Source: a virus (taxonomy: Duplodnaviria; Caudoviricetes). Taken from it: a stretch of 64,000 nt of DNA. Positions 44,285 through 45,290 of the stretch are shown here, piece after piece. Location of the stretch: the IMG/VR virus record IMGVR_UViG_3300048995_000010, positions 35,351-99,350 of that record. The stretch is one strand, 5' to 3'. The notes under the pieces are model-generated. The model saw only the letters and a program-made list of their open reading frames with translations, was not told the origin of the DNA and did not search any database. Position 1 is the stretch's first letter. Each line of letters starts with the position of its first letter. The position numbers and the translations under genes were made by a program.

Positions 44285-45290
44285 TTACCTCAAGTGGAGG
44301 ATAGGGATGCAAGTTCCCTTGCCGGATGCTGACCGGCCATGTGGGTAGTCCCAGTCCTGGCCCACAAAGTAGTCTCCTCCCCGGAGTGAGCACGTTAGGC
44401 AAAATCAATAAGACCTATACTCTCTGTGCTGGGCTTCTCAGACTACTCTCCCACCAAGCCAGAAATGAGCGAGGTGGGAGCCGATGGTAGCCTTCCATCA
44501 AAGAGGGGTCTTTGACCCTGAAATCAAAAAGGTGTTCCCGATGTGCCTTGACTGGCTATTCGGGAGCTAGGGACTATTGTAAGACAAGACAATAGCTCAA
44601 CAAAAGTAGAGTACCGTCCCAAATGGAGCAGAAACTTCCAAACCAGACTGTCTTTAACATGTAAACTCTCCGATAAAAAGAGAGTGTGCTTATAGCAGAT
44701 GTGACAGTCACCGAAGCCCGGCTGAAATAGTTCCGGGGTTACAGAGTGTGTAGGAGGGAGGTTCTTCCCCGGTGTGAGATGAGCCTCTATCCGGGGGCAT
44801 ATGGCCAGTTGAGAATCTAAATAACGTTTGGGATGGCTCAGGACGCAACTTCACAGTAAGTAAAATAGTCGGATGATGTTCCTTCTGTGATGCCGCAGGT
44901 TCAACTCCTGCACTGGTCTCAAAAGGGGTTCGACTCCCCGTTGTAATCTCGTACAGATGAGGTATTCTGACGGGAGGAGTACCACATAACGGTAGAACGT
45001 GAAAGTCCGTAGTGGTTGAAAGTCATAGCGGTGGTAAAAGACCCACGCAGGAGACGTACACTGCGTCCTCACTAAGGGTGAAACCTTAGTGGGGAACGAG
45101 TATTTCTGCTTCATGAAGTGAGTAGTAGATCAAAACAGGCAACGTCTTTCCTGCTTTCCAACTACTCATAAGTCCCGGCCATATCCCCACACCAATGGGT
45201 TCAGCCGCCGAAGAGGGATGATCTGAGATATAAGGTGACTCTCAGGATTCCCAGAGTGAGGTGGTACTCTATCTGGGAGCTGTTTTTCTT
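44285..45290 (+). ncRNA. Large (~1 kb) ornate ncRNA, GOLLD/raiA-like
   Basis: No plus-strand ORF; dense GC-rich hairpins; long-range pairings; GTGGTTGAAAGTC..AAAAGACCCACG core; adjacent to tRNAs. Confidence 0.65.

Follow-up and report, generated by a model that had tools for sequence, protein, structure and literature searches.

A mosaic non-coding island of small RNA modules beside the tRNA genes of a crAss-like phage

Introduction

In large lytic phages, the region of the tRNA genes can also contain genes for small stable RNAs, as in the T4 tRNA cluster with its RNAs C and D. What kind of RNA could be made from a long, hairpin-rich stretch in such a region is the question raised by positions 44285-45290 of the DNA analysed here, a 64-kb window corresponding to bases 35351-99350 of a 99,350-bp IMG/VR phage record. 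The original prediction read this stretch as a single ornate RNA of about 1 kb with a raiA-like core, possibly a divergent GOLLD RNA or a new class. Its observation was partly confirmed, and its interpretation, although supported in part, was for the most part refuted. A structured non-coding RNA locus does lie on the plus strand beside tRNA genes of a crAss-like phage, and its organisation as an island of independent small RNA modules, described below, is well supported.

Results

The gap and its surroundings

The original description of the phage as crAss-like holds, since its major capsid protein shares about 31% identity with the counterparts in crAssphage, crAss002 and Flavobacterium crAss-like phages. 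The stretch at 44285-45290 lies inside a 1,414-nt gap (44281-45694) in a block of plus-strand genes, all genes around the gap being on that strand, and the gap is bounded by a CDS that ends at 44280 and by a 92-aa CDS that starts at 45695. The upstream CDS (43783-44280, plus strand), which encodes an RyR domain fused to a T7 Gp5.9-like (RecBCD inhibitor) domain, is the sole CDS within the island and is missing from its slot in some relatives (L047). Across the relatives this slot holds the RyR/Gp5.9 fusion, one domain alone or no such gene. Two matches to the tRNA model are located on the plus strand 0.5-0.8 kb upstream of the stretch, in agreement with the predicted tRNA adjacency: the first (43502-43577; ARAGORN Ser-aga; 42.4 bits against a gathering score of 29) marks the start of the island, and the second (43686-43757; ARAGORN Asn-gtt) scores 46.6 bits.

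No plus-strand ORF of at least 60 aa (code 11) is present in 44281-45694, and recoding of TAG as Q or TGA as W yields no convincing ORF in the gap, so that the description of about 1 kb without a plus-strand ORF holds. Neither strand of the gap contains a conserved ORF, and a Pfam search for coding content of the gap gave no matches. A minus-strand ORF (44851-45114) was rejected as a gene, because it has just a 25-aa stretch in common with L044, which is caused by a 1-nt indel. Scans of sigma-70 and Bacteroidota -7 motifs gave matches at chance level. In this crAss-like phage, 44281-45694 is genuinely non-coding and rich in hairpins.

Local folding, long-range pairing and covariance models

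The predicted density of local hairpins is confirmed. With the pairing span limited to 120 nt, the minimum free energy of the 1-kb stretch is -332.8 kcal/mol, compared with -285.8 ± 9.4 kcal/mol in dinucleotide shuffles (z = -5.0), and an equal-length control from the DNA-polymerase CDS gives z = 0.45 on the plus strand and -1.2 on the minus strand. The reverse strand of the stretch reaches z = -4.6, with a weaker energy, and sub-segments of the gap have fold z scores of -2.9 to -4.5. The hairpins named in the original prediction are all present, namely CTCCCACC/GGTGGGAG (44448-44481), CCTCACTAAGG..CCTTAGTGGGG (45066-45095) and TGAGTAGT/ACTACTCA (45119-45168).

The long-range helices that would hold a 1-kb molecule together fare differently. 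Their letters are present, but complementary 8-mers at long range are as numerous as expected by chance (10, compared with 7.3 ± 3.5 in dinucleotide shuffles), as are 9-mers (2, compared with 1.8), and the partners of the proposed helices sit in modules that are found without each other in relatives, so that the pairing is not conserved. The complement GAGUACCAC (44977) / GUGGUACUC (45261) co-occurs in the present phage, L044 and L213; because it recurs in three genomes, some pairing between modules is conceivable, and this complement could be a contact between a loop and a strand of two modules or could be due to chance. The conserved strand at 44977-44990 is complementary at 12 of 14 positions to the loop, at 45256-45269, of copy 3 of the UCCC..GGGAGC hairpin described below, and the pair GAGUACCA / UGGUACUC is found together in L044 (6969 / 7279) and L213 (4206 / 5336), as in the window. 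An apparent covariation of U/C with A/G in GAGYACC-GGURCUC was dropped, because GAGYACC forms the 3' strand of a D-arm-like stem in which the U/C pairs locally with G.

Covariance models lend no support to the resemblance to GOLLD or to the raiA-like core. A search of the 64-kb window with Rfam 15 at the gathering score found no GOLLD (RF01998), ROOL (RF03087) or raiA motif (RF03072). At E <= 10, Rfam returned the two tRNAs and noise from 43300-45800 (2.5 kb) and noise only from 44795-45495 (0.7 kb), with no GOLLD, ROOL or raiA in either segment, and no match to the raiA model at the claimed core (45012-45047) was found among all matches up to E = 10. In seven relatives, Rfam at the gathering score gave tRNA matches and one group I intron elsewhere, and nothing more. 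The gathering-threshold scan of the whole window (1-64000) gave 0 matches, and the 2.5-kb scan found both tRNAs above the gathering score, which indicates that the fast filters of a large scan can lose atypical tRNAs.

Relatives and the mosaic structure of the island

A BLASTN search of the gap against 50,697 phage records found no match. Searches of IMG/VR showed wide occurrence of the RyR protein without synteny, and gave no close relatives with single-sequence patterns of a 283-aa protein and the DNA polymerase. Profile scans of IMG/VR and metagenomes reached distant relatives only (DNA polymerase identity of 53% or less), in which every module is absent by BLASTN, nhmmer and the hairpin model described below. 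Relatives were found via DNA-polymerase homologues of 55-87% identity, which gave 12 syntenic loci in JGI and Logan assemblies (L044-L051 and L212-L215). Upstream of a 91-95 aa gene, all 11 relatives whose contig reaches this position (the contig of L048 ends before it) have a gap of 0.7-2.3 kb that is poor in genes, and a few relatives have a short minus-strand gene call inside the gap. Because the gap keeps a constant place in the relatives, the non-coding island is regarded as a conserved feature of the clade.

The content of the gap is far from constant. BLASTN among the gaps finds only patchy shared blocks of 30-190 nt, in differing combinations and orders. The closest relative, L044 (87% identity in the DNA polymerase and 78% DNA identity in the RyR gene), shares with the gap only 44766-44798, 44922-45064 (92%) and 45496-45700, and the whole 5' 480 nt of the stretch at 44285-45290 are replaced by other modules in that phage. 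The blocks 44766-44798 and 44922-45064 abut in L044, so that positions 44799-44921 of the window represent a clean 123-nt insertion, which is exactly one tRNA-shaped unit (see below). Phages at 65-77% polymerase identity share 44296-44488, with up to 100% identity over 52 nt, and little else. The order of modules among L044, L045 and L047 is not colinear, and element AB (see below) is separated from the other non-coding modules in L212 and L214 by two genes, one for a 670-aa DUF8224 protein and one for a 134-aa protein. No homologues of 44645-44712, 44803-44920, 45066-45168 or 45344-45487 were found among the 12 relatives. Mobile elements are present in the replication genes of relatives: a group I intron lies near a GIY-YIG gene (L046:8716-9012), the DNA polymerase is split by a LAGLIDADG gene (L213:8001-11142), and a helicase carries a LAGLIDADG insert (L215:11324-13891).

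Patchy, re-ordered and gene-split modules cannot be explained by a single RNA with a fixed long-range fold, and can be explained by independent units. Comparison of the genomes thus indicates that each module, with 30-190 nt of homology, is passed on, lost, inserted or moved independently of the others, and argues against one ornate RNA of about 1 kb. The modules might still be domains of one large RNA, a divergent GOLLD or a new class, with variable insertions between conserved cores; the locus is hairpin-dense, tRNA-adjacent and phage-borne, ends in a terminator-like structure (45250-45296) and contains the loop-to-strand complement that recurs in three genomes. This is nevertheless very unlikely, given that no GOLLD, ROOL or raiA match is found at E <= 10, that the closest relative lacks the 5' 480 nt, that the modules are not colinear and are split by the 670- and 134-aa genes in L212 and L214, and that the long-range complementarity is at the level of chance. 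GOLLD is a single large RNA with colinear domains; a phage context and tRNA adjacency, both found here, are typical of it and not defining. The island resembles GOLLD, ROOL and raiA RNAs in being phage-borne, tRNA-adjacent, hairpin-dense and several hundred nt long without an ORF, and differs in that it has no covariance-model match and is not one colinear conserved RNA, its modules being exchanged and separable by genes. In line with the original suggestion of a new class, the locus matches no described RNA family.

Element AB and its near-invariant core

Element AB (44288-44483, plus strand, about 195 nt) consists of four 5' hairpins (H1, 44288-44300; H2, 44304-44318; H3, 44321-44337; H4, 44341-44365), a variable middle of 80-200 nt across genomes and a 3' UCCC..GGGAGC hairpin. 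It is present in the window phage, L045, L046, L047, L214 and L215, and its A part alone is present in L212. Pairing in H1 and H2 is kept with changed letters (GGGA/UCCC, GGGU/ACCC, GGAG/CUCC).

The near-invariant A core of this element (44319-44367, plus strand, 49 nt, 7 genomes) contains an anticodon-arm-like 5-bp stem with the 7-nt loop AUGCUGA. It is 92-100% identical to its relatives, wobble positions included, compared with 69-78% DNA identity of the adjacent CDS. The reading frame through the A core has different stops or is shifted in relatives, which implies that the constraint is on the nucleotides. RNAalifold found the conserved parts of AB too invariant for covariation. In exact-pattern scans, neither the A core nor the 3' (B) hairpin has a copy in IMG/VR or among 185,579 species genomes.

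An HDV-like ribozyme was also considered for the A core. The criterion applied, for which a published descriptor of theta ribozymes is available (PMC10879173), was a nested double pseudoknot with a catalytic C, directly abutting a tRNA. This idea is not supported by the Rfam HDV-like models, none of which has a match, and by eye the core does not seem to fit the P1-P3-P1 order.

The UCCC..GGGAGC hairpin family

The hairpin at the 3' end of AB belongs to a family that recurs in the gaps, with the motif U-CCC-NNN, about 17 nt, NNN-GGG-A-GC (31-33 nt in total). The simple pattern has 25 matches on the plus strand and 1 on the minus strand in the 2.5 Mb of sequence analysed. A covariance model built from ten 33-nt copies finds, at E <= 0.13, 27 plus-strand copies, all inside the gaps of 13 genomes. 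The model has no match in 1.16 Mb from distant relatives, and within the 99-kb genome of the phage itself the copies are confined to this gap. Three plus-strand copies are present: copy 1 or "B" (44449-44481; loop type AGCCAGAAAUGAGCGA; 46.9 bits, E = 5e-8), copy 2 (44536-44567; loop type CCUUGACUGG; stem CCCGA/UCGGG; 23.2 bits, E = 0.014) and copy 3 (45249-45280; 23.3 bits), which lies near the 3' end of module E. The loop type of copy 2 is also found in L044, L047, L051 and L214 on different stems.

In the alignment of the family, which was fitted to the model, 94.3% of cells are paired, compared with 73.3% in shuffles, 7 of the 10 pairs change on both sides, and the covariation score is reached by 0 of 500 shuffles. 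G.U pairs of the family are present in the plus sense only. The apical parts fall into few conserved types. One subtype has the apex G(G/A)(G/C)CUCAUAA(C/U)C(C/U) (L049:5671-5703, L046:5837-5869, L044:7116-7148), and other subtypes have the loops AUUGAAA and AUUCAAA; in L049 the first of these subtypes (GGGCUCAUAACCC) has the same sequence as the anticodon stem-loop of the initiator tRNA of bacteria, including the three G-C pairs. In several blocks (AB, a unit of L044/L047/L051, and module E), homology stops a few bases past GGGAGC, which suggests a role at 3' ends or in processing. The hairpin may be a common handle for 3'-end formation, processing or protein recognition.

The strand specificity of these motifs also bears on the possibility that the gap acts as DNA, for example as an origin of replication, a hot spot for recombination or a place of homing sites just ahead of the replication genes. 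Its location upstream of the DNA polymerase and helicase block and its mosaic recombination junctions would suit such an element. A role of this kind is, however, extremely unlikely, because the motifs are strand-specific, with G.U pairs that work in the plus sense only, no iterons were found, the gap is above the genome mean in G+C and not A+T-rich, and the cumulative GC-skew minimum is about 17 kb away, at 27-28 kb.

tRNA parts and tRNA-like units

Hairpins of the T-arm type (G-C-closed UUCRANN hairpins) occur 7 times on the plus strand and 0 times on the minus strand of the 64 kb, all within two RNA islands, and three of them are in this gap. The second island, ORF-free at about 29.2-29.8 kb, has T-arm hairpins at 29515-29537 and 29588-29604; it contains no UCCC..GGGAGC hairpin.

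Two plus-strand units of the gap have tRNA-like ends. The tRNA-shaped unit at 44803-44920 has a 7-bp acceptor-like stem, two expanded arms and the T-arm GCAGG-UUCAACU-CCUGC (44895-44911), which directly abuts the 3' acceptor strand that pairs with the 5' end of the unit. In the second end-paired unit (45344-45487), the T-arm UGGG-UUCGACU-CCCA (45462-45476) is likewise followed directly by the 3' closing strand that pairs with the 5' end. Because both units fail the Rfam tRNA model (RF00005) as well as ARAGORN, the relaxed calls of which are implausible, the designation "tRNA-like" is based on partial architecture. In the gap, ARAGORN -m at a lowered threshold finds 0 tmRNA genes, and ARAGORN with introns and lowered thresholds finds no credible tRNA. 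Module C (44568-44640, plus strand), which is common to L047, L213 and L046, combines a hairpin with a tRNA D-arm-like GCUC..GAGU segment, and the fold of 44536-44640 has z = -3.5.

Relatives carry matches to the tRNA model in which the anticodon arm is expanded by 36, 38 and 97 nt (L049), with similar cases in L044 and L050. In these genes (L049:4940-5040, L049:6156-6258, L049:6268-6424, L050:6248-6360 and L044:5654-5764) the acceptor, D-arm and T-arm are intact, a 3' CCA is frequently present, and the 36-97 extra nt form a long hairpin. The expanded-arm genes may represent either a bacterial-phage tRNA intron of a new kind or natural tRNA-scaffolded RNAs.

Such an abundance of tRNA fragments (T-arms, D-arm-like and anticodon-arm-like parts), together with the high turnover, the many modules specific to the window and the homing-endonuclease genes that occupy the slot of the island in relatives, might be expected of a decaying tRNA-gene array, that is, a hypervariable accessory locus consisting mostly of functionless tRNA remnants and recombination scars. 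Decay is unlikely to be the explanation, because the A core is better conserved than the protein gene beside it, compensatory changes are seen in the hairpin family, which is also strictly specific to strand and locus, and the gap persists in all relatives despite the compactness of phage genomes.

Other modules and terminators

Between these units lie further plus-strand modules. An end-paired branched unit (44645-44712; z = -2.9) is closed by the stem GACUGUC/GACAGUC. The hairpin CCCCGG..CCGGGG (44766-44798) is kept in L044 with the compensatory change CCUCGG..CCGAGG. Module D (44922-45064), which contains the segment likened to raiA and the conserved strand of the 12-of-14 complement, opens with the T-arm-like hairpin GGGG-UUCGACU-CCCC; it is 92% identical to L044, its 3' part is 79% identical to L049, and its hairpin GUGG..CCAC is changed in a compensatory manner to AUGG..CCAU and GCUG..CAGC in relatives. 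The frame of the minus-strand ORF that overlaps this module is not conserved. Two strong hairpins (45066-45095 and 45119-45168) make up the segment 45066-45168 (z = -4.1).

Module E (45171-45296, plus strand), common to L213 and L045, ends in hairpin copy 3 followed by a U-rich tract, and this hairpin with its tract (45250-45296) is likely to be an internal terminator that forms the 3' end of the stretch originally predicted. A hairpin with the loop GUGUCUAC (45314-45337, plus strand; z = -4.5) has a twin at 43464-43489. The two have the common apex CUGUGUCUACAG, and the decamer TCTTTGTTTC (43416 and 45287) precedes each of them by 20-50 nt; in their placement, the twin hairpins and the decamer look like a repeated promoter/leader or terminator unit that brackets the island. 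Module F (45496-45672, plus strand; z = -3.7) includes an intrinsic terminator (45638-45672), a G+C-rich hairpin with a U tract, 22 nt before the next start codon. Terminators with mutually unrelated, covarying stems are found at this position in 11 genomes; a terminator lies 20-30 nt before the 91-95 aa gene in the window, L044-L049 and L212-L215. The U tract runs into TTATTTG-like letters, which may in addition be a Bacteroidota-type -7 promoter box.

The conserved position of the terminator 22 nt before the next gene in 11 genomes, the U tract after hairpin copy 3, the excess of terminator-like sites (12, compared with 3.2 expected) and the location of UCCC hairpins at the 3' edges of modules would all be accounted for if the gap served as cis-acting punctuation of transcripts, with terminators, antiterminators or nuclease sites for the flanking early and replication operons and no trans-acting RNA. 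As an account of the whole locus this is improbable: 1.4 kb is excessive for such a purpose, most UCCC hairpins have no U tract, and such a role does not account for the invariant 49-nt A core or the tRNA-shaped units.

Discussion

Selection at the RNA level is acting on at least three module types: the near-invariant AB core, the UCCC..GGGAGC family with its covarying stems, and the hairpins in module D and at the terminator, which covary as well. Element AB and the UCCC..GGGAGC hairpin match no Rfam family and are clearly selected as RNA. The explanation favoured here, with moderate confidence, is that the island of about 2.3 kb (about 43.4-45.7 kb) is a tRNA-gene region made up of many separate plus-strand RNA modules of 30-200 nt, the products of which would be processed and are possible mimics or decoys.

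According to this model, the island would be co-transcribed with the upstream tRNAs, and the transcript would end at the terminators at 45250-45296 and 45638-45672. Host tRNA-processing enzymes would then cut the transcript into small stable RNAs, which might mimic tRNAs, act as decoys or carry effector hairpins on a tRNA scaffold, in each case directed against host factors that bind or cut tRNA. Three observations suggest a mimic, decoy or scaffold function: parts of tRNAs are reused, a gene of the anti-defence type is located in the island, and modules are exchanged like cassettes; a decoy function is a guess, with about one chance in three of being right. A more far-reaching version of the model would see in the tRNA-part chimeras and expanded-arm tRNAs a new class of phage small RNAs, with the UCCC..GGGAGC hairpin as a handle for one dedicated protein, that act, as decoys or by inhibition, on tRNA-directed defences of the host (e.g., anticodon nucleases) or on translation factors and are swapped like anti-defence cassettes; this version is rather unlikely.

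The island is similar to the tRNA regions of large lytic phages such as T4 in that small structured RNAs are interspersed with tRNA genes on a single strand and are probably processed from a common transcript, and in that the locus varies and is a target of homing endonucleases. It differs in that most of its units are not decoding tRNAs and in having a lineage-specific repeated hairpin and a conserved element of about 195 nt.

Known tRNA-like or tRNA-scaffolded non-coding RNAs include tmRNA, the bacterial Y-RNA-like YrlA and the tRNA-miRNA chimeras of gammaherpesviruses. As in these RNAs, an acceptor-stem and a T-arm (in the relatives of the phage, a D-arm too) are kept, a long insert takes the place of the anticodon arm, and hairpins are appended to tRNA-like bodies. 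The island is different in that ARAGORN finds no tmRNA and Rfam finds no match to the Y RNA, YrlA or tmRNA models; YrlA, moreover, ends in the Ro-binding stem and not in an acceptor-stem.

RNA decoys of phages include solitary CRISPR repeats with an anti-CRISPR action, alongside which stand phage tRNAs that substitute for, or evade the fate of, tRNAs cut by host anticodon nucleases. The putative likeness is that small phage RNAs would imitate a host RNA to engage host proteins, and an anti-defence-type gene (Gp5.9-like) is located within the island. In contrast to such decoys, the stems of the island covary and are not copies of one host repeat.

Searches of the literature for these elements found no description. 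For the locus itself, a false lead is removed, in that it encodes no new GOLLD-like giant RNA. For the clade, the finding means that these crAss-like phages keep a non-coding island of 1-2 kb, composed of exchangeable small RNA modules, beside their tRNAs. If expressed, the modules would be new candidates for RNA-based manipulation of the host in one of the most abundant orders of phages, and they could provide natural examples of tRNA-scaffolded RNAs.
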